A stretch of 64,000 nt of DNA from NCBI GenBank assembly GCA_963768055.1, contig CAVYGN010000002.1:1664001-1728000 (forward strand). Direction: 5' to 3'. Below the pieces are notes generated by a model. The model saw nothing but the letters and a program-made list of their open reading frames with translations, searched no databases and was not told where the DNA came from. Made by a program: the position numbers and the translations under genes. How positions within the stretch are numbered: position 1 is the first letter of the stretch; each line of letters opens with the position of its first letter. This stretch comes from an uncultured Spirochaetota bacterium. GTDB lineage: Bacteria > Spirochaetota > Brevinematia > Brevinematales > JAOACQ01. This document shows, piece after piece, positions 29,180 to 58,523 of this stretch.

Positions 29180-29194
29180 AGTCTGGAGGGAATC

Positions 29195-32229: not shown

Positions 32230-32381
32230 AAGGCAAAAAAGTACTAGAGAGCTAAAAAAAGGTACTGGAGTACTATTGACTCTCTTTGATCATATTTTAT
32301 ATAATTTATGCCATTAAAAAATTATGAACTGTCAATCTAAGGATAAATTTATAAGAAAAATGAGGTAAGACGCTTTTGAAT
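32230..32381 (+). promoter_or_regulatory. Duplicated promoter, copy 1 (export operon)
   Basis: Three A-tract/GTAC boxes then TTGACT(32276)-N18-TATAAT(32300); near-identical to 45773-45915. Confidence 0.8.
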
Positions 32382-32743
32382 ATGTAAAAATATAATTGTA
32401 AAGTGGAAAAGTGAAAAATTAAAAGAGACTATTTAAATCACATTTGCTCTTTAATTCCATTCAAAAAGTTAGTTTTATTAGTCGGGTATTATTTTTCAAA
32501 ATTTCTGGTTTGAGTGCGTCATGGTTCTTAATATTTTACGTTAAGCGAATAGGTAAAATAAGAATATGATGATAGTTTATGTATCAAGAAAAGAAAGTGT
32601 AATAATAATTTATTGATATTAACGGAGTTGAAAAAAATAGTTGTCAATAATGGATTTGACAATAAAAATATTTTATTATAGTGCTAAGTCATATTTAGTT
32701 ATTTGTCGAATATAATAACAATAAAATTTGAGAAAAATATTTA

Positions 32744-33415
32744 ATGGAGTTTGATATGAAAATCAGAGGATTGATTGCGTTGTCAGTATTGGTATTATTT
32801 TCGTGCAGCGGGCAGAAAATCGGCCCTGAAGAAGACAAAAAAGAAACCTTCCTTTTCAATAAAGCAATCATATTTTATCTCAGGAGAGATTTCAATTCTG
32901 CTGAAAAAGGATTCTTGGAAATAGTGCAGAAATACCCATCTTACACCCCGGCATACATAATGCTTGGAAAATCATATTTTTTCATGAACAGGTTTGGAGA
33001 AGCCGAAAAATATTTTAAGCAGTCCATAGATAAATCTCCTAACGTAGATTCATACATCTGGCTTTCCAAGATAGCGATTGCGAATACGAATATGAACCAG
33101 TGCCTTGAGTATCTTAATAAAGCACTGCAACTCGACATGTCAAGTCCGCTCACTCATTATGAACTGGGGAAATATTATAGAATGGCTGGACAATATGATA
33201 AAGCGATATATAACCTTAATTATGCCATTTCATATGAGGATATTTATCCTGAAATGAAAAGCGAGCTGGCTTCACTTTATATGGATCTTGGCGCAAAAGA
33301 TAAAGCCGATAAGCTTTACGGTGAAATACTTAAAAGTTCTGATGTTTCTCCGATGGTAAGATCAAATGTAATAGAAAAAATGGATAAACAGGATAAGTCG
33401 AGGAAGACTAAATGA
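32744..33415 (+). CDS. TPR-repeat lipoprotein
   Basis: LFSC lipobox; TPR patterns (AYIMLGKSYF...EAEKYF, HYELGKYY...YDKAI). Confidence 0.85.
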   Translation: MEFDMKIRGLIALSVLVLFSCSGQKIGPEEDKKETFLFNKAIIFYLRRDFNSAEKGFLEIVQKYPSYTPAYIMLGKSYFFMNRFGEAEKYFKQSIDKSPNVDSYIWLSKIAIANTNMNQCLEYLNKALQLDMSSPLTHYELGKYYRMAGQYDKAIYNLNYAISYEDIYPEMKSELASLYMDLGAKDKADKLYGEILKSSDVSPMVRSNVIEKMDKQDKSRKTK

Positions 33416-33876
33416 AAAAAGGAATTTTATTTGTATTTACGGCTTTTGTTATTTCATTTATCTTCTTTTCCTGCGGTATTGACACTTATAGATATTCATA
33501 TATAAGGCCCTCAGAAAAAAAATTGAATTTAAAAACTTATTCGATTAATAGCGTGGAAGTATTCAATGCTGAATCCTTATTTTTAGACAAAAATGTTGTT
33601 TCCAATACAATAAGCCAGGTTTTCGATATTGTAATGGCGAATAATGGATTCAGCTCGGTCAAGGACGGGGATATTTCCGTGGATATCAAGTTATTTGTTG
33701 AAGAAAATGATGTGATCAATAACAAGCAAACTTTATCCCTCTTTTTGACTATTAATGATAAAAATTCTCCACTTGCCCAATTCATTCTAGCCTCGAAAAG
33801 CAAAGATCTTATCCTCGATAAATCCATGCTGATCAGGGAAATTAACAGCGTGGCCGATCAAATCAAACTTTTATAA
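33412..33876 (+). CDS. Small lipoprotein
   Basis: FFSC lipobox; overlaps the upstream stop. Confidence 0.7.
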   Translation: MKKGILFVFTAFVISFIFFSCGIDTYRYSYIRPSEKKLNLKTYSINSVEVFNAESLFLDKNVVSNTISQVFDIVMANNGFSSVKDGDISVDIKLFVEENDVINNKQTLSLFLTINDKNSPLAQFILASKSKDLILDKSMLIREINSVADQIKLL

Positions 33877-33888
33877 CCTGAACGGTTT

Positions 33889-35292
33889 ATGACAAGCGTG
33901 AAAATTAAGGCGATTATCGCTGCACTTATTTTCTCAACAGTTTATTCTGCAGCCGCGGCCGAGCCGTTAACCCTGCAGGAGTGTGTCAGCGAAGGCCTGA
34001 AAAATAACAAGGATATCTGCTATCTTAACGAAGAATCCTCGCTTCAAATATTGGCATTGGATGAACAATACAGAAAATTTTATCCTCAGGCAAGCCTGTC
34101 TTATGCGGAAACGGACCAGGTTAATATGAATTCTCCGGATTACAGGCTGAGGAATCTTTCGGTATCGGTATCACAGCTTATATATGACGGCAATAAGCTG
34201 GGGACTGAAATAGAAATTGAAAAGAACAATATCAGTATAAGCTTGCTGGAAAACAGCCAGAAAAGGATAGATTTTATTTTCCAGATTGTAAGCGGTTATC
34301 TTTCAATTTTAAAACAGCAAGAAAAAATCAACATCAAAAAACAACTTATTGAAACCCAGGAAAAAGAACTCAATATATCAAAGAAGAAAAATGAAGTTGG
34401 TGAGGCGACCAAACTGGATGTCCTTGAATGGCAAATTGAATGTAACCAATCTACAGTCGACGAACTGCAACTGGAAAACGATCTTGTTTTTGGAAAAATG
34501 AGCCTTATGAAGCTTTTAGGAATTGATATTGGAAATTCTTTTGAAGCGAGAGAAAAATTAGAGATAGACGTTGCTGCTTCATTCATTGATTATATAGAAG
34601 ACAGTGTTATCTCAGAAGCGCTTGAAAATTCCATCGATTTAAAAAAAATCCAAATTTCAATTATAAAAGCTAAGGAAACTTCGGTTCTTCACAATCTTTT
34701 GCTTCCCGATATCACATTGAATTTTTCTTACACAACAGATCCGAATTATTTATTTCATCCGGATGCAAGTTCATGGACAGCAGGGATTAATTTTAGCATA
34801 CCATTTTTTTTCGATGTACTTAATTTTGGTAATTCTTATGGCGGAAATATGAACGGAAGTCAAAAAAGTCAGGATCCTCAAATATCTTCGACTGTTTACC
34901 AGGATCCAAGCTTTACCAGAAAATTAAAAGAGGATGCATTTTCTTTCGACCAGCTTTCAAGTCAATATCATGACAAGATCGAAGAGATTAAACTTGATAC
35001 AAAGAAAAAATTAAGCGATTTCAAATTTCAAAAAGAAAAGATAGAAATGCTTGATGAGAAAATCAAGCTGGCTGAAGGTAAAAATACTATTTTATATCAC
35101 CAGGTACAAGTTGGTGAAGCATTACTTTCGGATTATATCAATTCATTAAACACTCTAAGTGAAATGAAAATGGAAAGAGTTGAAAGTCTTTATGATTATA
35201 CGACTTTAATGATTGAAATTTATAAAATCCGGGGAAAACTATCGGAAGATATCGTCAAATCATTATATAAAGATTTTCTTAAAGAGGTCTAA
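33889..35292 (+). CDS. TolC-family outer membrane channel
   Basis: LTLQECV..GL.NN, VSQLIYDG, GEATKLDVL, PDITL; operon context. Confidence 0.85.
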   Translation: MTSVKIKAIIAALIFSTVYSAAAAEPLTLQECVSEGLKNNKDICYLNEESSLQILALDEQYRKFYPQASLSYAETDQVNMNSPDYRLRNLSVSVSQLIYDGNKLGTEIEIEKNNISISLLENSQKRIDFIFQIVSGYLSILKQQEKINIKKQLIETQEKELNISKKKNEVGEATKLDVLEWQIECNQSTVDELQLENDLVFGKMSLMKLLGIDIGNSFEAREKLEIDVAASFIDYIEDSVISEALENSIDLKKIQISIIKAKETSVLHNLLLPDITLNFSYTTDPNYLFHPDASSWTAGINFSIPFFFDVLNFGNSYGGNMNGSQKSQDPQISSTVYQDPSFTRKLKEDAFSFDQLSSQYHDKIEEIKLDTKKKLSDFKFQKEKIEMLDEKIKLAEGKNTILYHQVQVGEALLSDYINSLNTLSEMKMERVESLYDYTTLMIEIYKIRGKLSEDIVKSLYKDFLKEV

Positions 35293-35293
35293 A

Positions 35294-36805
35294 ATGAAAA
35301 AACGTCCTGATAATAAATTGCAGAAAATAATTGCCAATTCAAGGGATTTTGTAACAAAAATTCTCAAATTTTTCAGTACCGGATTAAAACGTCGCATTGG
35401 ATTAGGGCTTGTAGTACTGCTCCTGATAATGGTTGTTGTTTCCATATTCACTTTCAAACCGGTATTCCCGAACTTAAGCCAGGAAAAGGATCAGAAAACA
35501 AATGATATTGCTGTTATGCCTGAAATCAAGGTTTCCCGGATAGAGAAAAGGGGAATTACGGACGAAGTGAACACTTACGGAACAGTTTCTTATTACCAAA
35601 AGGTTAATGTAGTATCTAAAGTGGAAGAAATCGCGGATAAGGTTAATGTCAATATCGGAGATTATGTAAACAAGGACCAGGTTTTGGCAGTAATGAAGAA
35701 TGAATATATAAAATTGGGCGTCGAATTAGCTAAGGAAGACGTGAGAGGCAAGGAAGCATCTTTCGAGTTATCGCTCGCAAAATACAGCAATGCTCTGCTG
35801 GGTGTCGAAAAAAATATTGGGTCCCTTGATAGACTTAGGATAGAAGAGAAACAAAAGAAACTTGAAATTGCAAATGCAGCCAGGATCCTTTCGAATAAAG
35901 ATGAGCTTCTTAGCGTAGAGGGCGTTACAAAGGAACAGTACAAAGATGCGGAAAGCAAGTACGATATTGCCATGCTTGAGCTTGACTCCATATTGAAAGA
36001 GATACAGGTCTCTGAAATCGGTTACAGGGATTCCGATATTAAAAACGCCGGAGAAAATGTGCCTGCTGATAAGGATCAGAGACTTGAAATTTTGAAGAAA
36101 ATTAATACAAAGGTAGAAAGCGCTGAAGTCGATATAGCCAAATCAGAAATAGAAAGATCCCGTCTTCAGCTTCAAACATCCGAATTAAATTTCGATGAAA
36201 CTATTATCAAATCTCCGAATAACGGCATAATAGCAATGCGTTACATCGAACCGGGTGAGAAAGCTGAAAAGGACAAACCCATTTTTACGGTAATTGATCT
36301 CGAAAGTTTATATATAGAATTGCCGGTCCCTGAAACCGAACTGCCGACAATAAAGCAGGACCAGGTTGTAAATATTAAAATTGATGCATATCCTCAAATG
36401 ACCTTTAACGGGATTGTGGAAACAATATATCCCATAGTGGATGTGAAAACAAGAACTGCAACTATAAGGTGTAGAATAAAAAACCAGAGACTTACAAGAA
36501 ACAGATATTTATTAACACCCGGAATGTTTGTTCGCGCAAATATTGTGACATCATCAAGAAAAGACGCTCTGACAATCCCTTTCGACGGTATGGCTGAAAA
36601 GGACAACGCAAGGATAAAAGTTTTCATAATCAAAAGGAATTCAACAGACACAAATACCGGTGTTGCTGTCGAAAAATGGGTGCCGTATTCTAAAATAGCT
36701 GATACCTATATTGAGATCCTGCAAGATCTGGATGAAGGCGATTTAATAGCTGTATCAGGGCTTGATTTTCTGGAAACAGGGCTGAGAGTTAAAATAAAGG
36801 AATAA
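35294..36805 (+). CDS. RND periplasmic adaptor (MFP) with a long coiled coil
   Basis: N-terminal TM, V.IGDYV.KDQVL, IKSPNNG, IYP.VD.KTRT, LTPGMFVR; start ATG 35294. Confidence 0.9.
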   Translation: MKKRPDNKLQKIIANSRDFVTKILKFFSTGLKRRIGLGLVVLLLIMVVVSIFTFKPVFPNLSQEKDQKTNDIAVMPEIKVSRIEKRGITDEVNTYGTVSYYQKVNVVSKVEEIADKVNVNIGDYVNKDQVLAVMKNEYIKLGVELAKEDVRGKEASFELSLAKYSNALLGVEKNIGSLDRLRIEEKQKKLEIANAARILSNKDELLSVEGVTKEQYKDAESKYDIAMLELDSILKEIQVSEIGYRDSDIKNAGENVPADKDQRLEILKKINTKVESAEVDIAKSEIERSRLQLQTSELNFDETIIKSPNNGIIAMRYIEPGEKAEKDKPIFTVIDLESLYIELPVPETELPTIKQDQVVNIKIDAYPQMTFNGIVETIYPIVDVKTRTATIRCRIKNQRLTRNRYLLTPGMFVRANIVTSSRKDALTIPFDGMAEKDNARIKVFIIKRNSTDTNTGVAVEKWVPYSKIADTYIEILQDLDEGDLIAVSGLDFLETGLRVKIKE

Positions 36806-36816
36806 TAGGCGGATGT

Positions 36817-38262
36817 ATGAAAAATAAAATAATTATTCCGGCATTATTTGCATTATTCTTATTTGGATTAATAGAATGTTGCAGTTTATTTACCTCTCCG
36901 ACTGTTGTTTCCGTATCTCCCGGTAATGACCAGGAAGTGGGAACGAATTTCAGCATAACAATAGTATTTTCCAAATCAATGCATAAAGACACGGTTCAGA
37001 ACGCTTTTGCACTTTATTGTCTGGGATCTTCAGGAAATTCATCCTCGCCGGGAGCGTTAATCGAAGGAAGTTTTTCATGGGATAGCGATACAACATTGGT
37101 ATTCAGCCCATTTCAGGACCAGCTGGTTTACCCTTCCCAATATTCAATACAGATAGGGAATACGGCAGCCGATTCAGACGGCAACTCATTGGGCAATACA
37201 TATTATTCCAGATTTAAAATTATGGGAAATGCAATTTATCCAACTATTGTTGCAACATATCCTACAAACGGTGCCATTAATGTTCGCATACAAACAAATA
37301 TTACAATTCAGTTCTCGATGCCGATGGATCAGGGAAGTACGATCAGCGCATTTTCTTTAAACCCTTCTATTGCGGGAAACCTGTCATTAAAGTCCAATAT
37401 ATTGCTGTTTCAGCCATCAACCCCATTGAGCAACGGTTGCTATTATAATGTAAATGTAGCAAACACCGCCCAGGGAACCAATGGCGTTAAACTTCAAAAT
37501 TCCTACGTCTTTTATTTCCTTGCCGGCAATGGCCTGACTTTACCGGCAGTTACCGGTATCTATACAAACTTAAACAGCGCACCGCTTACAAATTACCAGT
37601 CAGGCATTGAAAAAACAAATACAAATTTCTTTATTTTATTCAATATACCGATGGACCGGGATTCTGTATACAATAACTTGAGCATTACCCCGTCAGCCAC
37701 ATATTATATTAACTGGATATCCGGCAATACCGCCGCTTTATACTTTACAACTCCACTGATCCCTTCAACAAATTATACTATATCCCTTTCTGCTGGAACC
37801 AAGAGTACATCAGGTTCCCTTCTCCAGAACAATTTCTTATTCAATTTTTACACAGACGGCCTGAATTCGACATTGCCTTTTGTTAATGATATCGTCGCGG
37901 AAACAACCGGAGGATTCGTTGATATGACTAATACAAATATTATATACTTAATACCTATTACTGCAAATACTCTTTGCATAGATGTTTCTTTCTCAGGCCC
38001 GGCAAACATAAACCTGCTTTCTCTTTATACGAATTCATCAATAACGTTTCTTTACGGTAGTGGAGATATATCGCAATCAGGGAAAATTTACACTATCAAT
38101 ATGACCGGCCCGAACAAATTCACATATACGATTACTTCGCTTTGTTTGAGTAATTATTATAAATTTTCTATGACTGGAGGAGCGAATGGAATACAGGATG
38201 TTCTGCAGAATCCTTTATCGGGTTCTTGGAATATTTATTTCTCCATTACTAATACTAATTAG
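36817..38262 (+). CDS. Ig-like (Big_5/SbsA-type) repeat lipoprotein
   Basis: PTVVSVSP...ITIVFSKSM and PTIVATYP.NGA..V...ITIQFSMPMD repeats. Confidence 0.8.
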   Translation: MKNKIIIPALFALFLFGLIECCSLFTSPTVVSVSPGNDQEVGTNFSITIVFSKSMHKDTVQNAFALYCLGSSGNSSSPGALIEGSFSWDSDTTLVFSPFQDQLVYPSQYSIQIGNTAADSDGNSLGNTYYSRFKIMGNAIYPTIVATYPTNGAINVRIQTNITIQFSMPMDQGSTISAFSLNPSIAGNLSLKSNILLFQPSTPLSNGCYYNVNVANTAQGTNGVKLQNSYVFYFLAGNGLTLPAVTGIYTNLNSAPLTNYQSGIEKTNTNFFILFNIPMDRDSVYNNLSITPSATYYINWISGNTAALYFTTPLIPSTNYTISLSAGTKSTSGSLLQNNFLFNFYTDGLNSTLPFVNDIVAETTGGFVDMTNTNIIYLIPITANTLCIDVSFSGPANINLLSLYTNSSITFLYGSGDISQSGKIYTINMTGPNKFTYTITSLCLSNYYKFSMTGGANGIQDVLQNPLSGSWNIYFSITNTN

Positions 38263-39670: not shown

Positions 39671-39696
39671 GCCTGTAAAGGAATAGACTCTCGTAT

Positions 39697-42741: not shown

Positions 42742-45700
42742 TGTGGTGGACGAAATTTCACCTTAAAAAACCCATATCATCGATCCTGTTATACAGCATC
42801 ATAATTATGCTTGGCACATTCTGTATACCTCAGCTCAAGTTTACCGTATCCGGGGAGGTTTATTCACCGGTTATAAGCATAAAAACAGAATATTTCGGCA
42901 TGGACAGCAAATATATAGAAAAAAACATTACCATTCCAATTGAAAATGCCGTTTCATCGATCAAGGGTATAAAAAATATTTCATCCGTTTCCGAGGACGG
43001 TCAATCTATCATAATCCTTACCATGAACCCGTCTAGACCGATCAAAATTGCAACCCTTGAGATAAAATCCGCAGTAGATACCGTCAGGGATAAGTTTCCT
43101 GAAGACGTCCAGGAACCTGTAATATCGCATTACGACCCTTCACAAACGCCCGTCATGATCCTCTCCTTTTATTCAGACAGCATACCTCTAAAGGAAGTCA
43201 GAAGGACTGTCGAGGAAAAAGTGAAACCATCGGTCCAGAAAGTTGACGGAGTTGTCGAATGCATAGTTACGGGGGGAGAGCAAAGCGAGATAGCCGTTTT
43301 TGTAAATACAGGCCCGCTTTATAACAGCGGCCTTCAATTAAGGGATATTAGCAGGGGTATACAGCAGAATAATATCAGCAGCTACCTTGGGGATATAAAT
43401 CGGAACGATCTCTCAATGCCGGTTTTTTCCGAGGGCAAATACGAATCATATTATTCTATCGATAAAATTGCGGTTATGGAAAGTGCGACAAACGAATCTG
43501 TTTTTCAGCAGCTTGGAAAAATTGCTACTGTTGAGAATTATCATAAGAGAATAGACAATATTTCCAGGATCAACGGGAAGGAAAGGGTATCTCTTTATAT
43601 CCAGAAGCAGAGCGACGGAAACATTCTGAAAATTTGCAGCGGCATCAGGGACGTTGTCAAGGGTTTCGATTTTAAGAGTATTTCATCGGAAATTGATTTC
43701 GACAAATCGGAAGAAATTTCCGAAGCGTTGAATAACCTTATTTTTTCAATCCTCCTGGGAATCGGCCTTTTATTTATTATAATTACTGTTTTTATCGGCG
43801 GATATGAAAGAGGACTTGCAGCTGTAATTCCTTTGCCGGTTTCTATAGCCGTAACGCTGTTAATTGCTAATATTTTCAAGATTGAGCTGAACAGTATTAT
43901 TATGAGCGGAATAGCTCTAGGGTGCGGACTTCTTGTCAGCGACGGTATTATTATTGTCGAATTTCTGAGTAAAACAAATCCAAAAAATATGAACAGTCAT
44001 ATTTTAAGGAATATTAAATTACTTTTTCCGCCTCTGACGGCTGCGCTTTTTACTACTATCTGCGTATTCATACCTATAATATCCTCAAGCCCTGAAATCC
44101 GTTCGCTGTATACCGGATTTTCTATTATTATTACAATAATGCTTATAGTATCTCTTTTTCTATCGACAGGCATTGTTCCCGTATCGTATCGATTGGCGGT
44201 ACCGGGGATTGGGAATGCAGATGGAAAAAGGACAAATGTCAAAGCAGCGCTGATAAAATTCGAATATTTTTATATAAAACTTCTTAAAGCCTTTTCAAAA
44301 CATAAAAAATTTTTTTTCGGATTGACAATATTCTTGACCCTTTTTTCTATAACCGCTGTTTTTCTCAGGGGTAAAAGCCTGTCTTCATCGGATGTAATAA
44401 AAGAGGTTTACGCCTACATTGAGCCGGCTGCAGGCACAAGCATAGAGGCAACCGACGATCTTGCAAAGCAGGCTGAAGATATTTTTATAAAACAGGAAGA
44501 AATAAAAAAAGTGATAACGAAGGTTGAAAAAGCCCATTCTGAAATAATCCTTAAGTTAAAAAGAGAATGGCGTGAAAAAGAACTGGAAAAACAGATAGCT
44601 TCCTGGAAAAATGCTCTATCCGCAGTGAACGCATTCATATACTTTACTTACGGCGAATCGGACAATAACAATTCAGAGATCAATATAATGTTCATAGGAG
44701 ATGATATTGCAAGCATAAAGGAAATCAGTAAGCAAGCGGCAAGAAAAATTTTTACGTTGCCTTATTTTTCAGAAGTGCTGCTCCGTTACAAGGACGATTC
44801 GCCTGTATATATTCTCACACCTGATTTAAATAAGATCCAGATATCGGGCTTAAGCTTAAAAGAAATATCAGATGAAGCAAGAACATATTTATACGGGATT
44901 ATTTCGTCCAAATTAAATCCTGAAAATCAGGGTATGATGGATATAAGGGTAGCATCAATGATTTCAAGGGATAATAAAGTCCTGATGGACGATTTTTTAA
45001 ATATTGTTATCAGGAACGGCGAGGGGGGCCTTATACCAATCCGGGAATTATTTTCAGTCACAAAAGCGACAACATCGTCTAAGATTTACCGCTACAATAA
45101 ACGAAGGAACTTTTCAATCACCGCAAGACTTAAAGCCGGAATTAACCTCAGTACCGGTATAAATGCGATTAAAACATGCCTCGACCCCTTTCAAATGCCT
45201 GAAGGCTACTACTGGCAGTTCGACGAGAAATATGAAGCGCTTTCAAAAAATACAAATTCAATGCTCATAGCGGTAATTGCAGCCATATATCTTACCTTTG
45301 TTACTTTAGTGATATGCTACGAAGGTTTTAGAAAAGCTTTTATGACAATCCCCGTCATTCTTCTCTCTTTTATAGGCATAGCCCCGGCTCTATCAATTCT
45401 TGGCATAAATCTTTCAACTCCTGTTTATATCGGCATCATCCTTCTTTCAGGAACGACTGTAAAAAACAGCGTGCTTTTACTTTCAAATATAAAAAATCAT
45501 GAAAATTCCGTACAAATATTTCATAAATGCAGGAAAAGCCTGAATTCGATATGTCTTACGACGCTTGCAACGATTATAGGGCTTATTCCTCTGATTTTTA
45601 CCGGCGGGAACGGGCAGTATATCTGGAAACCGTTTGCGATCACAGTAGTATCGGGGCTTATAAGTTCGACAGTATTATGCCTTATAATTGTGCCGCTCCT

Positions 45701-45749: not shown

Positions 45750-45772
45750 TTAGGTAGGAATTAAAATATTTT

Positions 45773-45915
45773 AAGGCAAAAAAGTACTCAAGAGCTAAAA
45801 AAAGGTACCCGAGTACTATTGACTATCTGTGATCATATTTTATATAATTTACGCCATTAAAAAATCATTTTAATGGTGAATTTAGTAAGAAAGCTGAGGT
45901 AAGATACTTCTGAAT
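45773..45915 (+). promoter_or_regulatory. Duplicated promoter, copy 2 (giant protein gene)
   Basis: Same GTAC boxes, TTGACT(45819)-N18-TATAAT(45843) and downstream TGAGGTAAGA block as copy 1. Confidence 0.8.
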
Positions 45916-46026
45916 GTTTGAATGCAAGCTTGACAAATTATTTTATTTCTTGTACGATTTTGTTAAAAATATAACAATTTAAAATATACCTAGAAATAAT
46001 TATAATTATCCGGTCTCGAGGTATTT

Positions 46027-49000
46027 ATGAAAATTAAAGGTTTATTAAATGAAAAATGGGGAATATTACTGTCTTTATACCTTGCGATTATCTTTTCATT
46101 TATCCCCGGCATCCTTAGACCACAAGAAAAATTCAACAGTTTCGACAATAAGGAGATGCAAAGCGAGCTTATATACGGCGATAATATAAAAAACGATGCG
46201 GACTGGCAGAACTATTCAAAGGGTGTAGAGCAGAAATTAGAAGGGGATTGGGAAACTTCCGCTTTAAATGAACTTATGCAACAGCTTGGTTTGACTGAAC
46301 ATGAGGCAATGTCCAATTCCGATTTTATAACCGCTAAAACGAACTGGGAAGCCCAGGCAAGCAATGTCATCCAGCAGATGTACGGATCGTGGCTGGCGCA
46401 AAACAAATGGAATTATGCGGTAAACGGGAGCGCAATAAGACAGTTTATAGTTCAGTATGTATGGGAAGATCAGAACGATACATCGAATATAACCGCAAAC
46501 ATATTAAGTATGCAGACCAATGTGGATGCGGAATGGTCGAATTACCTTATCTGTTACCAGGCCGGCCTCAGCGATTATCTTAATTACCTCGAAACGAATA
46601 CTCAGAATATATCATCAACCGCTATGGAGAATTATTTAGATGCTATCCAGGCTACAGCCAAGGCGCAGATGGCGGCGGCTTCCGATATAGGAAGCGAATT
46701 TATCGCACTGGAAGAAGGACAGTATATAAAATATATGGCAAGTTTTCTCGCCTACCAGCAATTCATATCCAATAACTCCCTTATAACGAACGGATTGCAA
46801 TTATCGAATAATATGGTTTCGTACATTAGCAATGCTGCGGATGCGGCAAGCAATGTAAACAGTCCTCTGACAATAGCGGAAAACGTCATACAATCCATGG
46901 ACAGCAACGAAGCCGAGATAGCCGGGCTTCTGGCAATGCCGACAAATTTCACCGATTCACCGGCAGTCGGGATAAGCGAGTGGAAAAGCATGGTCGAACA
47001 GGACTACACGGCCGGCATAAGCGAATGGGACGCGGCGATCGCGAACCTCAGCAACAGCATGATCATTTGGGAAAATAACGCTGAAAACGGATATACGAAC
47101 GGGCTCACGGAATGGGAGAATTCATACTTTATGTTAATCAGCGCCGAAATGGATTTCCAGTCCAATGTCACAGCCGACCTGACCAACAGCGAAGCCGTCT
47201 GGGGCTCGAACATCAGCGCCCAGTATGACAGCCTTAACCTCATGATAGGCACAATGACAAACCTTACGGCCCGGAATATCGATAATTTCAACAGCTACGA
47301 AAGCGGCCTGATGAATGTCCTGGTAAACGGCTCTTACGCGCTTAATGAACTGAATAAGAGCCTCGATTGGATCTCAAATACATTGAGCGTCGATGAAATT
47401 TCGAATAATTACTATTCAAATTTATACGCATCGGACATGGCTAAATCGAATCTTGATGAAAGCGAGCTAAGTTCTTCGAATACTCTTCTATCGCTATTCA
47501 ATAATTGCCAGTCCATTCTCGAACCTCTCATGGTCCTGACCGGCACCAACCGTTATTTCCAGGGAGGGGAAGGAGGAGTTGAAGCTGTTCCTGCTTACAG
47601 CGCTTCAACTAATATCGACGGTTATACCCTGACTTACAGCGGCGATAGTTATAATAATTCTTATACGGTGAACGGCAACGAAATTTATTACACCGCAAAC
47701 GGCTTTTCGTTTGAAAACAGCGAACCCGTCATGATTATAAAGTCATACATCAATAGTATTCAAAGCGATCTTAATTCAATTCAAAATGCAATACAAACCA
47801 ACAAATGGTATTATCGTCACTACTCGTCTGAAATTGGTTCCCTGAACAATGTCCTGGGAGAATGCGGGACAAATCTCGGCGCCGTGATCGGCAATGCGGC
47901 CGCCGACCTGAATTCCGAATTATATTCCGGCGATCCCGGAGCGGGAGTTCTCGCAAACGCGCTATCCAACACCGCGGATATTTACCTAATGAACAGCGCG
48001 GAAATGGATTACGCGTCCCAGCAGGACCAGGTTAACTACCTTAAACAGAACCTGGGGATAGCGCAGGCGGTCATGGATTACGCCGTTTCAAACTCCGGCG
48101 GAGGCGATATACTCAGCGCATCGAATACTTACGAAGCTGCGGTTTCGAATTATGACGTATCGACGAACGAACTTGAGGCGGAACAGGCTGCCGCCGATAG
48201 CGCTGACGTTGCAATGACAAACTATATGGAAAATATAAACGCGGCCCAGACGAATATGATCGCGGACCAGAGCAATTGCGGTATTGCACAATCCAATTAT
48301 AACGCATTCGTGACCATCCAAACAAATTTGGATTACTTTACAAGCAAGGAATATTCAAACCTTATTAATTCAAATGAAAACGCTCAGAACATTTTGTCGA
48401 ATGATTCCATTGCATATTATAGCTGCCTTGCATATTATACCGGCCTTGTCAAGGATTACTACAACGCGCTGGAGCAGGAATCGTTTACGAACAGCCTGGC
48501 CATGTCGAATTATATAACGGTAAGGGAGGACCTCGGAATTCTCGAGTGGGCCCTTATGCCGGGGATGCTCGGGATAGATAATACTTCGAACGCCTATGTA
48601 TCGGTTGCGAACTACATTAATCCGGTTTCGGATTATTCCAACGCCCTGCAGCTTTACGACACTGCGGAGAACGGGCTGGCCCGGACAAGCAATCTCATAA
48701 TAGCGGAAGAAACTCTTCCGGCAAACATGCAATCCGAGGTTAACAATTTCATCGGCGACTACAGCGATTATAGTAAACTGATGAATTTTGCCCAATCATT
48801 TATGAACCAGGAGCAGACGGTATATCAGTCGCTTGAAGGTGCTAAAAGTACTTATGATCGTGATGCTACGAATTCTTTCGGACTGTCTGCTGACGATATA
48901 GCCAGCGATCCGGTATATGCCGATGTTGTTAAGAAGATGAGCGCGGGTGCCTATACGCCTGCCGATATTATTACTATGCTTAACAACGAGATAGGCGTAA

Positions 49001-52000: not shown

Positions 52001-53814
52001 CCGGCCTCGACTGGAACAATATGACCCTGAACCCCAGCACATGGAATATGAAGGCCGGTTCCACGATCAATATGAACTGGGGAAACATACTTAACAATTC
52101 CCTGGTAGCTGGAGCCTCCGGCTTCGCTTCGGGGCTTGCGGGGTCTTTGCTCGGCGGACAGTACAACGCCGATATGGGAGGAATGGACTATAACGGACTT
52201 ATCGGGGGTGATGCTTACAATAATTTCGCAAATGTAATAGGATCGTTCGCAGGACAGGGCGCAAACTACGAACTGAACGGAAGCTTCAACATAGACCTCG
52301 GCGCGGGTATCGGCACAAGCTATGTTAATGGCAAAGGCTTCGTGCGCAATGACGGGACATCGGGAGTAAGCCTCATAAGCTGCCTGCAGGGATTTTCCGA
52401 CTTATCGAATTCATCGAACCTGCCGGCCTTGCCTGTAAATAACAATCAGGACGCAAGCACGACGCCGGAACTCCCGCAAGCCATATTGCCTAAGGATCCA
52501 TCCGACTATATTCCGGAAAGCGATATCGTCAATCCGAATGTTCCGGACAATTCATATAGCGGAGCGAATAATGCGGCCAATCCAAATCCGAATGCGTTTA
52601 CTCCTGCAACAGTAGCTTATAATGAAATAGGGCAGCAAGTTCCACTTACTGATACACAGAGTCCTGTAGTTCCCCAGACAGTAAACCCTTATGACCATAT
52701 TTCAGACGGGAATAATTCCGGTCCGATTTTACCATATCAGCAAGTAGCAGAGCAGGCGTATCTCAATCAAAGCGATGCGTACAAGACCCAGATTTCAGAC
52801 CTTCAGAATAACCTTGGCATAGTTACGAGTGCCGGTATCATCAATACAAGTTCGGCAGTGAGCGATCTGAAGAGCGATATTCACGTAACAGATAATGCAA
52901 TGCAGCAGAATTATTCGTCATATCTCGGCAATGCCGGGATTGATGTTTCAAGATTCACAAAAGATGCTAATGGAAATATAACGAGCAACATATCTAATAA
53001 TTCCAGTTTTGTCAGCCAGGTATATCAGGACCAGGTGGATCACTATAACCGTGTTATGGATGATGCGAAGGATAATGCGGTAGTGAATGGCATAAATAAC
53101 ACATATAATGCAATGCTTTCGGCAAACAATAACGCGAATATTGTACAGAATGTTGGTTTAGGAAATGCAGGAAATATTACTGATGTTATAAACTATCAAA
53201 ACGATATCAGAAGCAATAATATTTTAAATATGAACGGCAGCAATAATGGAAACATTGTCAGCGACAGCCTGCAAAACAAAGGAAATTATTTTATGGTCGG
53301 AGAACAGGGATTGGGTTTTGGAACGCCTGCAGGCAACTATGGCGATTCTTATAGCGACCGTATCAGTGTTTTCAAAATGGATGACGCCGGTAATATTGAC
53401 TTGAAAGAATTCAACCAGTCCAATCTGGAATCGACAAACGATAAATATGATAGTAAAACCAACACTTATGATCCGACTCAGCAGCAATATTCTGACACTG
53501 CCTCTGGTATATATAATCTTACTACATATCAATGGACGGGGGAAGGACATGATTCCCCAGGAATGCAATTCTGCTTCTTAATAAATGATAAAGGGCCTGT
53601 CTCTACCAGTGATGGAATGAATAACGTTGCCTATCCATGGCAAGGTCCTATTATATATGATTCGAGAGTGCATACAGGTGGAGTTTATTGGAATGGCAGT
53701 GAAGCATGTAGCACAATAAATCCTAACGATTATTATCAGTTGATGAGTATGTTTCAAAATTCAAATGGATCATATCAATATGGAAGTCAAGGCACATATT
53801 ATCTATTAAGATAA
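46027..53814 (+). CDS. Giant exported protein, putative polymorphic toxin (architecture recalls the Leptospira TIGR04388 large proteins)
   Basis: Signal peptide, long helical region with periodic Trp, Gly/Ala-rich hydrophobic segment, linker duplicated in an orphan cassette, C-terminal VH.GG....S..C.TI motif. Confidence 0.7.
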   Translation: MKIKGLLNEKWGILLSLYLAIIFSFIPGILRPQEKFNSFDNKEMQSELIYGDNIKNDADWQNYSKGVEQKLEGDWETSALNELMQQLGLTEHEAMSNSDFITAKTNWEAQASNVIQQMYGSWLAQNKWNYAVNGSAIRQFIVQYVWEDQNDTSNITANILSMQTNVDAEWSNYLICYQAGLSDYLNYLETNTQNISSTAMENYLDAIQATAKAQMAAASDIGSEFIALEEGQYIKYMASFLAYQQFISNNSLITNGLQLSNNMVSYISNAADAASNVNSPLTIAENVIQSMDSNEAEIAGLLAMPTNFTDSPAVGISEWKSMVEQDYTAGISEWDAAIANLSNSMIIWENNAENGYTNGLTEWENSYFMLISAEMDFQSNVTADLTNSEAVWGSNISAQYDSLNLMIGTMTNLTARNIDNFNSYESGLMNVLVNGSYALNELNKSLDWISNTLSVDEISNNYYSNLYASDMAKSNLDESELSSSNTLLSLFNNCQSILEPLMVLTGTNRYFQGGEGGVEAVPAYSASTNIDGYTLTYSGDSYNNSYTVNGNEIYYTANGFSFENSEPVMIIKSYINSIQSDLNSIQNAIQTNKWYYRHYSSEIGSLNNVLGECGTNLGAVIGNAAADLNSELYSGDPGAGVLANALSNTADIYLMNSAEMDYASQQDQVNYLKQNLGIAQAVMDYAVSNSGGGDILSASNTYEAAVSNYDVSTNELEAEQAAADSADVAMTNYMENINAAQTNMIADQSNCGIAQSNYNAFVTIQTNLDYFTSKEYSNLINSNENAQNILSNDSIAYYSCLAYYTGLVKDYYNALEQESFTNSLAMSNYITVREDLGILEWALMPGMLGIDNTSNAYVSVANYINPVSDYSNALQLYDTAENGLARTSNLIIAEETLPANMQSEVNNFIGDYSDYSKLMNFAQSFMNQEQTVYQSLEGAKSTYDRDATNSFGLSADDIASDPVYADVVKKMSAGAYTPADIITMLNNEIGVTGANSDISQDELNITRTTILDDFYKYVNTPEESLYELAFGIRSYDYFTNIAGANLTAFDNLVHTTFLSGRVDNSLLNPGAYVDVQGYIDGLTALLSTPGLDPNMSNVINNLANVLAPEGSYFQLSRGYIPAITNVNITPANTNWPQEAPQPIITPAVTNITISRLGGYYADDTFYNVNTNNGREKISDLFKGFIETNNSVTYSWATVNPNNYFDYNGYYGNWSYYNSVLLGIEKNEETTIVMPLMSTMTNNLAGVMSDWNDYSNKNAGFAQYTVSGMGHFVNSSGGIDVTAGNNGFLKSFKNSLSRVSNFSIAQSWLANTGVFNAEEAYIADNLSLGNAGTNDIGRILEVFENAFKLYINSEQSNIQNDPAFTTNNDMKLFITTMLSGAYSNAVFRASDEAQPSFVDAAENAGSLAPEAFDIAFQQQETLQVDKWAYILTNMQDQANSEAEMWVNIYSAGTEQWNGVINQYTNAMSDWQSSYLQAWNNGNQEWNDQMNGLTGDKAAWMNEAINAVSNGSSDYILDQLMQSIDQRTSQFLSGGLPEDVASAVKNEALDLENELMPKTSEEYLSFFNNAVSQSRETDVKFVLDGIAGYTGNDNETLAQFNNDMTAFKNSQLAIEAIKMRDQFVTTIQQYVDQMNNTLASDDQNERSSEFYPMISAKGWTLDGSDWVKRGVIVHSTMLGGNQLEDFSFADYQSFTNRLNFINYAPSNVISEINGEQTEYNLLLAMEESDIQGDMSNTMDAFDKHIGSSYTYTSKPDIYSDGTYDSQGELYRTSWATTYYGYLQTEGLSESEKPFWDQNLAPGIDISFYSLNEIGLAIALNFIPGMGTVASAAILAGMAMTHDIVDAAAELGTVNQVSNSQLGIDLLKDTISGVTTMATAGIGSAALGVVGSAVLSTGVQDLSGLAEEGLHVNSSGDIDWSMTSSQWGSWGMSSLGDLAGSVAGAGLGSAFGGFAQDATGFMGDDLSSAFGNGIQNFTTSFFTNTFSTLGSNLGAGLDWNNMTLNPSTWNMKAGSTINMNWGNILNNSLVAGASGFASGLAGSLLGGQYNADMGGMDYNGLIGGDAYNNFANVIGSFAGQGANYELNGSFNIDLGAGIGTSYVNGKGFVRNDGTSGVSLISCLQGFSDLSNSSNLPALPVNNNQDASTTPELPQAILPKDPSDYIPESDIVNPNVPDNSYSGANNAANPNPNAFTPATVAYNEIGQQVPLTDTQSPVVPQTVNPYDHISDGNNSGPILPYQQVAEQAYLNQSDAYKTQISDLQNNLGIVTSAGIINTSSAVSDLKSDIHVTDNAMQQNYSSYLGNAGIDVSRFTKDANGNITSNISNNSSFVSQVYQDQVDHYNRVMDDAKDNAVVNGINNTYNAMLSANNNANIVQNVGLGNAGNITDVINYQNDIRSNNILNMNGSNNGNIVSDSLQNKGNYFMVGEQGLGFGTPAGNYGDSYSDRISVFKMDDAGNIDLKEFNQSNLESTNDKYDSKTNTYDPTQQQYSDTASGIYNLTTYQWTGEGHDSPGMQFCFLINDKGPVSTSDGMNNVAYPWQGPIIYDSRVHTGGVYWNGSEACSTINPNDYYQLMSMFQNSNGSYQYGSQGTYYLLR
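52273..52518 (+). repeat. 246-bp homology arm, copy 1
   Basis: 244/246 identical to 55570-55815 by manual alignment. Confidence 0.95.
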
Positions 53815-54896: not shown

Positions 54897-54926
54897 ATAC
54901 ATATAAATCAACAAAGAGGCTAACTA

Positions 54927-55229
54927 ATGGACAACAAAAACAAGCCATCCGGCGTTCCCGTTAAATTCCAGGACACCGCGAATAAAGTAGCATACTCCAA
55001 CTTCGCTCTGATCAACAACTCGTCGGAGGAGTTCCTGCTGGACTTCGGCAATATCACCCCCGGCAAGGAGGGAGTGGAGGTATTCAGCAGGATAGCGCTC
55101 TCCCCCCGCAACGCGAAGCTGTTCCTGAGCGGGCTTATGGAGCGTGTGAAGAAGTTTGAAGAACAGTTTGGCCCGATCAAGCCGCCAGAGGCGGTGGAGG
55201 TAGAGGCGATGAACGGGAGAGATAAGTGA
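54927..55229 (+). CDS. DUF3467-family protein, copy 1
   Basis: YSNFALINNSSEEFLLDFG...SRIALSPRNAK...KFEEQFGPI. Confidence 0.85.
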   Translation: MDNKNKPSGVPVKFQDTANKVAYSNFALINNSSEEFLLDFGNITPGKEGVEVFSRIALSPRNAKLFLSGLMERVKKFEEQFGPIKPPEAVEVEAMNGRDK

Positions 55230-55550
55230 CGATTAACGATTGTCGAATGACGATTGAAACCAGGTAATAGTAAAGATTATGATTATAGAACAAAGGTTAG
55301 CGAACAACCCCCGCCTGCGAGGGAAGCGCCCGGGGGTTGATCCTTGTAAAGCAGGCCGTCCGCGAAAAACGGCGGTAAGCCCTGCCCCTTATCGATATCT
55401 GTTTTTTTATAAAAGAATTCGTTCGCTTAAATTAAAAACCTTAAGGGGCGGGACAGCCGTTTTGAGCGGTTGCAGTTCATGCTTCCCGAGCCCAGCGGGG
55501 GCGGTTTCTTTCGGTTCGCTTTCTTTGCCGGCCAAAGAAAGCGAACAGGG
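55230..55550. repeat. Structured palindromic element, copy 1
   Basis: Highly similar to 59904-60248; nested stem 55308-55501 plus a perfect 14-bp hairpin at 55514-55546. Confidence 0.85.
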
Positions 55551-55569
55551 GGCCAGGCATATCTCCGCC

Positions 55570-57084
55570 CTGAACGGAAGCTTCAACATAGACCTCGGCG
55601 CGGGTATCGGCACAAGCTATGTTAATGGCAAAGGCTTCGTGCGCAATGACGGGACATCGGGAGTAAGCCTCAGAAGCTGCCTGCAGGGATTTTCCGATTT
55701 ATCGAATTCATCGAACCTGCCGGCCTTGCCTGTAAATAACAATCAGGACGCAAGCACGACGCCGGAACTCCCGCAAGCCATATTGCCTAAGGATCCATCC
55801 GACTATATTCCGGAAGACGATGTTGTTAATACGAATCCTTCAAATAATACTTGGGCTGACCCTGGGCTTGCCGCTTCAAACGTAGTGAATAATGTGACCA
55901 ATCCGGCTCCGAATGTATTTAATCCTGCTAATGTGGCTTATAATGAAATAGGACAGCAAGTTCCACTTACTGATATGCAAAATTCTTCGTTATCGCAGAA
56001 AGTAGACCCGAATGATCATATTTCTATTGGCAGTGCCGCTCTTCAGGATTTGCTTTACAAAAATGGGGAATACAGCAATCAGCTCAAAACACTTCAGAAT
56101 GATATGAGTACTGTTCAGGGTGTTGGGTTAAATAATGCTAGTTCTATTGTTGGAGACCTCAAAAATGATTTTAAATCAACAGACAGCTTAATGCAACAGA
56201 ATTATACATCTTATCTGAGTGATAACAATATTAATGTATCAACATTCAAAGTCAATTCAGATGGCAGCGTGTCCAGCAATATATCGAATAATTCTTATGT
56301 CAACAATCAACTTTATCAGGAACAAAAAGATCATTACACTAATATCGCAAACGAAATGAATAATAGTTATCAAACTAATGAAATAAATAACACGATTAAT
56401 ACGCTTCAAAGTGTCGGGTTAAACAACTCGGCGGCACCGAGTATCGATCCGGCGATCTCAGATATGAAGGACCAGATAACTATAATAAATAACAGCTATA
56501 ATAAAAATATTCTTAGTAATGGTCTGAATAATAATAACAGATATGATTTTATAGGGGAAGAAGGACGCGGAAACTATCAGCAAACAGGTCCTGATTATTA
56601 CGGCGACAGAATTACTGTACTTCAGAAAGATGCGAGCGGTAATATCAATTTCGATGAGTTCAACAGATCCAACCTTGAATCGACTAATGATCCCTCATTA
56701 GACAGAAAAGACTATGATCCAGCAAAAGGCGGATTTCAATCAACTGCAGCTGGTATATATTCGCTTACAGCAAGCGGCGATACATCTAATCTTAACTCAC
56801 AAGATATACCATTAATATTTAGCGTAAATGACGGGCAAAACATACCGACAGAGGGAAATCAAAATAACGCATATAACTATAATACGCCTTACATGAACCA
56901 GATTCTTGTTCATGAAGGCGGCGACAACTATAACTGGAGCGCGGGATGCTCTACGATATATATTGATGATTACCCAGCATTAGCGAACTTATTTGGGAAT
57001 TATAATTCGCAGACAAAGAAATTTATACCTTATGCAGGAAGTTATTCGGCAATAGGAAGCGGTACATATTATCTTTACAGGTAA
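55570..57084 (+). CDS. Orphan alternative C-terminal cassette of the giant protein
   Basis: Begins with the 246-bp arm in frame, then diverges while staying homologous (VHEGG...SAGCSTI, GTYYL.R); the ORF part 55279-55569 is read-through of the repeat element. Confidence 0.85.
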   Translation: MNGSFNIDLGAGIGTSYVNGKGFVRNDGTSGVSLRSCLQGFSDLSNSSNLPALPVNNNQDASTTPELPQAILPKDPSDYIPEDDVVNTNPSNNTWADPGLAASNVVNNVTNPAPNVFNPANVAYNEIGQQVPLTDMQNSSLSQKVDPNDHISIGSAALQDLLYKNGEYSNQLKTLQNDMSTVQGVGLNNASSIVGDLKNDFKSTDSLMQQNYTSYLSDNNINVSTFKVNSDGSVSSNISNNSYVNNQLYQEQKDHYTNIANEMNNSYQTNEINNTINTLQSVGLNNSAAPSIDPAISDMKDQITIINNSYNKNILSNGLNNNNRYDFIGEEGRGNYQQTGPDYYGDRITVLQKDASGNINFDEFNRSNLESTNDPSLDRKDYDPAKGGFQSTAAGIYSLTASGDTSNLNSQDIPLIFSVNDGQNIPTEGNQNNAYNYNTPYMNQILVHEGGDNYNWSAGCSTIYIDDYPALANLFGNYNSQTKKFIPYAGSYSAIGSGTYYLYR

Positions 57085-57093
57085 AAGAAGGTT

Positions 57094-58053
57094 ATGAAAG
57101 TTAAAATTATGATAATTCTCAGTCTACTAATAATCTATTCATGTATAAATGCATCAAAAATTGAATTAGATGGAATAGAGAGGGGGAAACTTGGACTTAT
57201 TTATACAATATTTGGTGAAGATAATAGCCCCCTAAAATATAATGAATTTAATTTATTGGATAAGAATTTGAAAACAGCTTCTGCTATCAGCAAAAGTAAT
57301 TGTTCACCTGAAGATTCAATACCATGGTTCAATATATTTTTTAAAAAAGAATTCCCTGTTGATAAAATTGTAATCTATAATGGATTTCAATTGAATATGA
57401 CAGTTTATCAATTAAATGACAGACCCAATGAAGTAAAAATCGATTCACAAAATGAGAGTGATGATTCCACAAATTATTCATTTGTTACAAACATTCAACT
57501 ATTAGATATTACTAATAGTCAGGAACTTTTATTAAATAAAGAAATTAGAATAAAAAATTTTGGTATAGGTGTCCTTTCCACCTATCCAGGTACAAAGTAC
57601 GACGACATCTGTTTAAGCAAGCTTGAATTCTGGTACAAGGGCGAGAAGTATAATGTTGCAAATCTTGAAGAAGCCAAGAAAGAATATATTAAGACATACA
57701 TCCAGAGATGCCTTCATTGGATATTATCATATTATTATATAAACTCTATCAATCCTGAAGGGATGGATAAATTAGATAAACTTGCGGGAATAAAGAAAAC
57801 GGTAGAATTAGGATATGACACATGTATAAATTTTGAAAAGAGCGGAGATATCAAAGTGATACCGGCACTGGAAGATAATAAGGTAAGGGTACATGTCGGC
57901 AGCTGGAAATTCGACGATGAAGGAAGGCTATGGATTAAATTAGACAATGGCGACTGGAAGGTATCAAAAAGTTCCGAATCGAATGTTAATTTTGGCAAAA
58001 GACATTTTATCGGGACCGATCTCGATTGTGTTATTGCAGGTTGGGGTGGGTGA
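57094..58053 (+). CDS. Exported partner/putative immunity protein 2
   Basis: Paralog of 53814..54896 (YNGFQ, YDDICLSKLEFWYKGEKY, WKFDDEGRL, GTDL). Confidence 0.65.
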   Translation: MKVKIMIILSLLIIYSCINASKIELDGIERGKLGLIYTIFGEDNSPLKYNEFNLLDKNLKTASAISKSNCSPEDSIPWFNIFFKKEFPVDKIVIYNGFQLNMTVYQLNDRPNEVKIDSQNESDDSTNYSFVTNIQLLDITNSQELLLNKEIRIKNFGIGVLSTYPGTKYDDICLSKLEFWYKGEKYNVANLEEAKKEYIKTYIQRCLHWILSYYYINSINPEGMDKLDKLAGIKKTVELGYDTCINFEKSGDIKVIPALEDNKVRVHVGSWKFDDEGRLWIKLDNGDWKVSKSSESNVNFGKRHFIGTDLDCVIAGWGG

Positions 58054-58115
58054 TATTGATGATATTTAGAAAATTACTTTTATTAAAAAATAATAATCGA
58101 GCAAGAGGCTAACTA

Positions 58116-58478
58116 ATGGACAACAAAAACAACACCAAACCATCGGGCGTTCCTGTCAAATTCCAGGACACCGCCAATAAAGTAGCATACTCCAACTTTG
58201 CGCTGATCAACAATTCGTCCGAAGAGTTCCTGCTGGACTTCGGAACGATCACGCCCGGAAGGGAAGGGGTTGAGGTGTTTGGCAGGATAGCGCTTTCTCC
58301 CCGCAACGCGAAGCTGTTCCTCCAGGGTCTGGCTGAAAGAGTAAAAAAGTTTGAAGAACAATATGGCCCGATCAAGCCGCCGGAGGCGGTGGAGGTGCTT
58401 GTCCTGAATTCCCGCCAGAATTCAGGGCTTGCGCCTGTGGTGGAGGCGATTAACAAGGGAGAGCATCATCTAAAATAA
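58116..58478 (+). CDS. DUF3467-family protein, copy 2 (15-aa in-frame insertion)
   Basis: Near-identical to copy 1, with the same upstream AAGAGGCTAACTA. Confidence 0.85.
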   Translation: MDNKNNTKPSGVPVKFQDTANKVAYSNFALINNSSEEFLLDFGTITPGREGVEVFGRIALSPRNAKLFLQGLAERVKKFEEQYGPIKPPEAVEVLVLNSRQNSGLAPVVEAINKGEHHLK

Positions 58479-58523
58479 ATTTAAAATAAGTCCAAAGAAA
58501 ATATAATTTATGGAGGTTTTTGC

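Follow-up and report, generated by a model that had tools for sequence, protein, structure and literature searches.

We analysed a 64,000-nt stretch of DNA (hereafter the window; contig CAVYGN010000002.1, positions 1,664,001 to 1,728,000) from an uncultured bacterium of the Brevinematales, in which the gene for a giant protein of 2595 aa directly follows an operon of eight envelope genes. Taken together, the giant may represent a family of exported proteins from Brevinematales-type spirochaetes that is new and very rare, has the build of a polymorphic toxin and is functionally tied to the operon. This combined reading is credible and falls a little short of an even chance. As for its parts, a functional link between operon and giant is probable, and we lean towards a system of the polymorphic-toxin type.

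The layout of a polymorphic toxin, claimed for this locus in the initial annotation, is present with a constant carrier, a diverged C-terminus, a partner gene in overlap with the giant gene, and an orphan cassette whose identity to the giant breaks off sharply. In the catalogue of Zhang et al. 2012 (PMC3482391), one mark of such toxins is a variable C-terminus on an otherwise constant protein, which we found here with both C-terminal domains (hereafter tips) belonging to one family. Another is a downstream orphan tip/partner cassette homologous to the main gene, which is found as well. Residues 2077-2595 of the giant are 49% identical to aa 90-601 of ORF 55279-57084 over 541 aligned residues. 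When the two genes are compared in 90-nt blocks, those that start at 52284 and 52374 are 98-100% identical and the next one 86%, after which the values are 30-63% except for 76% at 52620; the sharp drop lies past ~52550. The near-identical stretch at 52266-52539 is likely a recombination substrate. Directly downstream of each tip lies a coupled partner gene that has co-diverged with it (37% identity between the partners) and is a candidate for the immunity role. The stop codon of the giant ends on base 53814, with which the start codon of partner 1 begins. Both partners carry export signals, which fits with a periplasmic target, and partner 1 is a candidate periplasmic immunity protein.

The array of a tip with its partner followed by an orphan tip with its partner was thus described correctly (tips 49%, partners 37% identical), but incompletely: each cassette also includes a DUF3467 gene, and the first ~90 codons of ORF 55279-57084 are probably non-coding. 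These codons run through a GC-rich repeat element, which leaves the orphan tip without a carrier. The GC content at third codon positions (GC3) forms a mosaic along the locus, with 0.33-0.40 in the operon, 0.53-0.59 in the carrier, 0.42 in the tip region, 0.23-0.28 in the partners and 0.63-0.75 in the DUF3467 genes.

The giant has an estimated mass of roughly 280 kDa, calculated from its length. Its N-terminal hydrophobic segment, a signal or an anchor by hydropathy alone, spans aa 9-32, and family-wide conservation is seen in the N-terminal domain (aa ~16-461). N, S and A are abundant in the protein, which is acidic with almost no Lys or Arg (D+E 288 vs K+R 90) and has two hydrophobic Gly-rich segments at aa 1811-1838 and 1873-1896. 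Neither VENN nor an Rhs motif nor GGxGxD occurs in its sequence. ABC, TpsB and VgrG genes as well as RTX and YD repeats, stated to be absent from the locus, were indeed not found among the 38 window proteins scanned. A search of plasmids with the N-terminus of the giant gave no match. Overall GC is 0.44-0.51 in the giant gene vs 0.32-0.38 in the pump operon.

The operon lies on the + strand at 32.7-45.7 kb and consists of eight tightly packed genes, which encode a TPR lipoprotein, a 154-aa lipoprotein, a TolC-type outer membrane factor (OMF), a membrane fusion protein (MFP), two Big_5 lipoproteins and two RND permeases. ORFs, Pfam and NCBIfam agree with the annotated coordinates and contents, including the position directly before the giant gene, and seven of the eight genes match a known family. 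By eye, lipoboxes are recognisable in the translations of the TPR, 154-aa and Big_5 proteins. For the 154-aa lipoprotein, Atlas gave leads only, namely one spirochaete cluster and one cluster automatically named LpoB. The true start of the MFP may be an internal Met ~26 codons after the listed TTG (35213), near the TolC stop, as judged by eye.

Both units were said to carry the same promoter, and this is confirmed by a 134-nt direct repeat of 87% identity ahead of each, within an alignable stretch of ~190 nt. Either copy contains TTGACT-18-TATAAT, which matches at 11/12 positions in a promoter scan, with GTACT-containing direct repeats upstream of it. A 26-nt motif derived from the repeat occurs exactly twice in the window vs zero times in 100 shuffles. 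Repeat copy 2 starts within the final codons of RND2, and no terminator-like site was found between RND2 and the giant gene in 45500-46100. Because the promoter region is duplicated and no such site separates the two units, the operon and the giant very probably share their regulation.

The word-based search of 5.8 billion clusters gave a single relative of the giant, P0002 (2482 aa, 39% identity). An exhaustive phmmer search with aa 1-1200 against 1.84 billion representatives returned nine proteins at E<=0.001, and with nine clusters the family is very rare. One candidate, P0005 (5520 aa, matched in 65 short low-complexity stretches), was set aside and not counted as a relative. The remaining phmmer relatives have the ~450 N-terminal residues in common. 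For P0003 (3515 aa), the similarity to the giant extends to the middle region and the tip, and the distant members P0007, P0009 and P0010 end without the tip domain. No Pfam family was found in the nine relatives scanned.

We scanned genomes with a three-sequence alignment of the giant, alignments of ten and five giants being too divergent for such a scan; the genomes of the window and of P0002 were not found in the scanned collection. Of 53 matched stretches two were confirmed (L001 and L002), both in one metagenome-assembled genome (MAG) of an uncultured Brevinematales bacterium. L002 is identical with P0003 and has just 460 nt of upstream sequence. In L001, the giant homologue has at least 3334 aa, as the contig ends inside the gene. 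Directly upstream of it and in divergent orientation lie genes for a TPR protein, a 155-aa protein, TolC, MFP, Big_5, Big_5 and RND, the last truncated by the end of the sequence flank. This series equals the first seven operon genes of the window in the same order. The operon orthologues share 31-51% identity with those of the window and the giants 23-30%. Hence, the adjacency of operon and giant has outlived deep divergence and an inversion. The operon is present at both giants with readable upstream context, and the four additional lipoproteins (TPR, ~154-aa and two Big_5) are kept in both genomes. Among the new evidence for a functional link, the synteny of L001 weighs most; with the window, it covers two loci. 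Together with the duplicated promoter, the conserved operon order beside such a distant giant argues that the link is more than adjacency.

The two paralogous giants of the MAG share 52-60% protein identity. Around their starts (L001 9797-10100 and L002 101-575), the two genes share 92% identity over ~200 nt upstream and ~115 nt at the beginning of the coding sequence; upstream of the L002 gene, part of this region occurs a second time. In either case the contig breaks off at or within the gene for the giant, an effect to be expected from repeats at its 3' end.

With respect to its pump components, the operon has what defines an RND tripartite pump, i.e., an RND permease, an MFP and an OMF within one operon (ACR_tran, HlyD_D23 and OEP). 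Neither permease could be assigned to a named multidrug or metal subfamily, as both stay under every NCBIfam subfamily cut-off (best 565.9 bits vs 1250). The canonical RND proton relay consists of Asp-Asp in TM4 and Lys in TM10, and neither permease shows this set. At the MdtB TM4 Asp-Asp position, RND1 has D-A (MVDANIV) and RND2 has S-D (LVSDGII); at the TM10 Lys-Lys position, RND1 has V-D (VVDNAIV) and RND2 has V-K (TVKNSVL). Thus, the residues of the usual charge set that are retained differ between the two permeases, as would suit an obligate heteromer. Two RND genes per operon is the known mdtABC arrangement according to the available part of a review on such pumps (PMC8277102).

The tip was examined for a possible enzymatic function. 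All four known C-terminal domains contain H-x11-C with S-x-[AG]-C-S-T-I, in which the Ser precedes the Cys by three residues. Foldseek with a low-confidence AlphaFold model of the tip placed YkuD-fold enzymes at ranks 1-5 (Csd6, Bd1075, Pgp2 with two entries, and LdtMt2; E 0.098-0.96, TMq 0.19-0.35), and more Ldt entries and DpaA followed below. Pgp2 and Bd1075 are, we assume, enzymes of the L,D-peptidase type, and we take Csd6, Pgp2 and Bd1075 to be cell-shape enzymes. Weak Atlas leads point to Tlde1_dom (0.78) and YkuD (0.76), and the Pfam YkuD family (PF03734) matched the orphan tip with E=0.08-0.11 and 13.5 bits vs a cut-off of 23.4. Tlde1_dom (PF10908) itself had no match among the four C-terminal domains. 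As far as the accessible text of the Tlde1a paper goes, Csd6 and LdtMt2 have L,D-carboxypeptidase and L,D-transpeptidase folds, the catalytic motif of the YkuD/Tlde1 type is His...(S/T)-H-G-C, and Tlde1a is a toxin of type VI secretion (T6SS) with an L,D-peptidase fold (PMC9638812). A Tox-LD-peptidase tip with conserved H, S and C is listed for polymorphic toxins in the available portion of the catalogue of Zhang et al. 2012 (PMC3482391). These lines, each non-significant alone, point in one direction, and the partners carry export signals; therefore, the most likely reading is a peptidoglycan-directed tip with a periplasmic immunity protein.

In further searches with the tip, phages (tblastn) and PHROGs contained no match, and a single tip sequence gave only chance-level matches to PDB sequences. 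Against BFVD, the tip model had no Foldseek match at E<=0.001; a 'Lysin' was at rank 4 and an 'Endolysin' at rank 10. Partner 1 had no match among PDB sequences.

From these observations, the following mechanism can be proposed. The two copies of one promoter/operator region would drive the operon and the giant together. The giant would cross the inner membrane via Sec, as its N-terminal signal segment predicts, and its constant carrier would comprise the conserved N-terminal domain, the long acidic N/S/A-rich body and the two Gly-rich hydrophobic segments. TolC, the MFP and RND1/RND2 might then carry it to or across the outer membrane, with the Big_5 lipoproteins as putative periplasmic adaptors. 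This is the weakest step, for which the conserved linkage is the one line of support; we therefore offer export of the giant by the pump as a plausible hypothesis and consider it rather unlikely so far. On arrival, the H/S/C motif and the faint fold resemblance suggest that the tip would act as a thiol L,D-peptidase-like enzyme, which would edit or cleave the stem peptides of peptidoglycan in a neighbouring cell's periplasm. In the producer's periplasm, the exported partner from the overlapping next gene would block the tip. Finally, recombination across the ~270-nt stretch, which is present at both sites, could swap tip 1 and partner 1 for orphan tip 2 and partner 2. Read in its most far-reaching form, the operon would be a dedicated two-step secretion or display machine, in which a proton-driven RND pump moves the Sec-exported ~280-kDa carrier from the periplasm to the surface. 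Such a new type of secretion system, of which Brevinematales-type spirochaetes would provide the first case, is quite doubtful at present.

Several observations weigh against the interpretation given above. The tips lack the second His of the Tlde1a motif, and their AlphaFold model, built on a four-sequence alignment, is of low confidence (pLDDT 56, pTM 0.55). None of its 471 Foldseek matches reached E<=0.001 (TM <=0.36), YkuD was seen, under the cut-off, in just one of the four C-terminal domains, and a profile of the four domains had no match among PDB sequences. The word-based search of longer proteins (344-2000 aa) revealed no tip on other carriers, and the search of similar-length proteins returned the window's own fragment alone. 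Both tips form one family, where toxin domains unrelated to each other would be the more usual finding. The partners match no known immunity family in Pfam, Imm16 and Imm57 included, and are large (319-360 aa) with a glycan-binding domain. Regarding the pump, the operon-giant linkage was seen at two loci, perhaps from one order, and the RND pair is closest to MdtB-type drug pumps. We are not aware of any RND pump with a protein as its cargo. For capture from the periplasm, the available part of the review names only the ABC pump MacAB, with a cargo of up to ~10 kDa (PMC8277102), vs ~280 kDa for the giant.

The known export pathways of polymorphic toxins are those of type II, V, VI and VII and similar ones. 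The accessible text of the polymorphic-toxin catalogue mentions neither TolC nor RND (PMC3482391), and we found nothing in the literature on this system, on this type of operon or on protein export by RND pumps. Contact-dependent inhibition (CDI; CdiB/CdiA/CdiI, type Vb) is similar in its giant Sec-dependent exoprotein, with a constant carrier, a variable C-terminus and an immunity-type gene directly downstream, and in its orphan tip/partner modules preceded by a stretch near-identical to the full-length gene. In contrast to CDI, the locus has no TpsB/CdiB, no matches to two-partner secretion domains or filamentous-haemagglutinin repeats among the window proteins scanned and no VENN, and the carrier belongs to no known family. 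For Neisseria MafB and other Sec-dependent polymorphic toxins, the route through the outer membrane is not established. MafB resembles the giant in being a toxin with a signal peptide, whose tips vary and which is accompanied by immunity-type genes and orphan cassettes, with no recognised dedicated secretion system at its locus. Unlike MafB, the giant has a carrier that is ~10x longer and unrelated in sequence (0 Pfam families), and it is linked to a conserved pump operon.

TIGR04388 (Lepto_longest) comprises very long spirochaete proteins of unknown function. The proposed resemblance of the giant to this family did not hold in an HMM search: the giant had no match at E<=0.01, and one of eight relatives reached 12.9 bits against a cut-off of 45. 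This distant relative, P0008, faintly matches the N-terminal part of the model. Type I secretion (HlyBD-TolC) has in common with the locus that the cargo gene adjoins genes for TolC, MFP and transporter, but the proteins scanned contain no ABC family and the giant no RTX/GGxGxD. Like MdtABC-TolC, the operon combines an OMF, an MFP and two paralogous RND permeases, with MdtB as the best solved match of RND1. It differs in the four extra lipoprotein genes, in RND paralogues of 24% identity and altered proton-relay positions, and in reaching no NCBIfam subfamily cut-off.

The Tox-LD-peptidase tips and the pair Tlde1a/Tldi1 share with our tips the conserved H, S and C, which in our tips mark a candidate thiol L,D-peptidase-type domain, and the candidate peptidoglycan target and immunity protein in the periplasm correspond to those described in the parts of both papers available (PMC3482391, PMC9638812). 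The differences are the missing significant sequence or fold match, the H-x11-C spacing, the absent second His, partners that match neither Imm16 nor Imm57, and a locus without T6SS. With the enterotoxin STII, the ABC pump MacAB shows that a TolC system can pick up from the periplasm a polypeptide delivered there by Sec; according to the accessible review text, such cargo reaches ~10 kDa (PMC8277102), far less than the ~280 kDa of the giant.

Two other explanations have to be considered. The operon could be a self-standing MdtABC-type efflux or envelope system for a small molecule or lipid, which is merely adjacent to the giant gene and co-regulated with it, the giant being independent of the pump. 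We regard this as somewhat unlikely. Every pump part fits standard families, the closest solved structure to RND1 is that of MdtB (E=1.8e-97), and the two RND genes per operon recall mdtABC (PMC8277102, available part). The giant itself carries two hydrophobic segments in addition to a Sec-type signal segment; it might be anchored in the inner membrane or periplasm, or insert into the outer membrane via its own Gly-rich hydrophobic region. Its GC3 of 0.53-0.59 vs 0.33-0.40 in the operon suggests separate origins. Against this reading, the adjacency has persisted through an inversion and a divergence to 31-51% protein identity, and the promoter region is duplicated ahead of both units. The proton-relay positions are unlike those of MdtB, and the four non-pump lipoproteins conserved in both genomes are absent from ordinary drug pumps.

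The nature of the giant itself could also be different. It might be a structural protein of the envelope or periplasm rather than a weapon, with an L,D-peptidase-like tip that, similar to the cell-shape L,D-carboxypeptidases of helical bacteria, remodels the cell's own peptidoglycan, or else anchors the protein to the wall. The downstream cassette would then have arisen by paralogous duplication or serve as a reserve for phase or antigenic variation. Variation through silent cassettes is frequent among spirochaetes, and the relatives come from a spirochaete order. The top Foldseek matches Csd6, Pgp2 and Bd1075 are presumably cell-shape enzymes, the two tips are one family, and three distant members (P0007, P0009 and P0010) lack the tip domain. 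Against this, each tip has a co-diverging, translationally coupled and exported partner, the junction between constant and variable parts is sharp and near-identical, and GC3 is mosaic; together these are marks of a toxin-immunity cassette and not of a housekeeping enzyme. Moreover, nine clusters are far too rare for a core shape determinant. Hence, we consider a structural role improbable. The coordinates of all features of the toxin-like locus and its operon are given in Table 1.

Table 1 Features of the giant-protein locus and the envelope operon in the window (position 1 is the first nucleotide of the window)
Feature	Position	Strand	Remarks
Promoter repeat copy 1	32192-32325	+	TTGACT-18-TATAAT at 32276-32305; ~420 nt 5' of TPR gene
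TPR lipoprotein, 223 aa	32744-33415	+	TPR_2 E=6.5e-21; lipobox LFSC by eye; 45% identity to L001 orthologue
154-aa lipoprotein, no known family	33412-33876	+	0 Pfam, 0 NCBIfam; L001 orthologue 39% identical, same position
TolC-type outer membrane factor, 467 aa	33889-35292	+	OEP E=4.8e-38; TIGR01844 68 bits, under cut-off of 225
MFP (periplasmic adaptor, HlyD-type)	35213-36805	+	HlyD_D23 E=3.3e-26; TIGR01730 RND_mfp 148 bits, over cut-off of 94.9
Big_5 lipoprotein a, 481 aa, 3 Big_5 stretches	36817-38262	+	Big_5 E=6.9e-35; 39% identity to L001 orthologue
Big_5 lipoprotein b, 494 aa	38186-39670	+	Big_5 E=2.5e-21; 30% identity to Big_5 lipoprotein a
RND permease 1, 1014 aa	39697-42741	+	ACR_tran E=1.4e-194; closest solved structure MdtB 9lyq_B, E=1.8e-97
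RND permease 2, 1003 aa	42738-45749	+	ACR_tran E=4.5e-143; 24% identity to RND permease 1
Promoter repeat copy 2	45735-45868	+	TTGACT-18-TATAAT at 45819-45848; ~160 nt 5' of giant gene
Giant protein, 2595 aa	46027-53814	+	ORF; 0 Pfam, 0 NCBIfam families at E<=0.01
Constant stretch common to giant and orphan cassette	52266-52539	+	Repeat, 96% over 274 nt
C-terminal domain 1 (giant aa ~2418-2595)	53278-53811	+	H2549-x11-C2561, S2558; candidate L,D-peptidase-like toxin domain
Partner 1, 360 aa	53814-54896	+	Signal peptide, NADase-type discoidin domain, C-terminal domain; NF047619 61 bits (cut-off 38); PF25302
DUF3467 protein a, 100 aa, without signal peptide	54927-55229	+	PF11950 E=2.6e-16
GC-rich structured repeat element copy 1	55225-55570	+	Between DUF3467a and orphan
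Orphan C-terminal cassette	55546-57084	+	Homologue of giant aa 2077-2595; without carrier and without convincing own start
Partner 2, 319-aa lipoprotein	57094-58053	+	Architecture as partner 1; 37% identity to partner 1
DUF3467 protein b, 120 aa	58116-58478	+	87% identity to DUF3467 protein a
Third DUF3467 3'-end remnant	59794-59840	+	Repeat analysis; followed by GC-rich element copy 2
GC-rich structured repeat element copy 2	59899-60248	+	Follows DUF3467 remnant

The two DUF3467 genes (87% protein and 84% DNA identity) are far more alike than the adjoining tips or partners, and their GC3 of 0.63-0.75 contrasts with ~0.38 in the surroundings. DUF3467 has no solved relative, its model (pLDDT 58) gave no Foldseek match at E<=0.001, and one paper mentions the family, with no function stated in the portion available. 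A SecB-like chaperone role is conceivable for it. The GC-rich element is ~330 nt long, with copies 85-90% identical and long hairpins (RNA fold z = -2.4), and matches no Rfam family at threshold. The DUF3467 genes and this element may form a separate repeated module. Two ORFs, starting at 55279 and 59953, open inside the element and are 78% identical over 99 aligned residues, a likeness for which the repeat, and not a true protein, is probably responsible.

Downstream, the lipoprotein genes 58524-59543 and 60382-60963 each follow a DUF3467 copy or remnant and share an 85% identical ribosome-binding/start region (58498-58543 and 60356-60401). The former contains three ~190-nt repeats; its protein repeats a YTAGQDSSGNACYWTG-like unit, which suggests a beta-propeller. 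Upstream of the operon, 27134-31056 holds tandem paralogues without a Pfam family, one as a 681-aa ORF and the second copy split into ORFs of 374 aa and 246 aa. Their C-terminal parts are near-identical and have, by eye, the look of a Cys/His peptidase. Positions 1-24000 are variable, with IS1595-type and DDE_Tnp_1 transposases, an N6-methylase/Eco57I protein, a TOTE-type primase-helicase, a radical SAM-SPASM-HD protein and a beta-lactamase-fold protein. Thus, the locus adjoins mobile and defence genes.

For spirochaetes, whose export routes through the outer membrane are poorly understood, the operon and its giant are a candidate for a novel route that takes a very large protein through a diderm envelope, and one that is concrete and can be tested. 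Even if the pump were unrelated, the locus would add to the conflict systems of bacteria a carrier and a type of partner that are both new, as well as a divergent L,D-peptidase-like tip.

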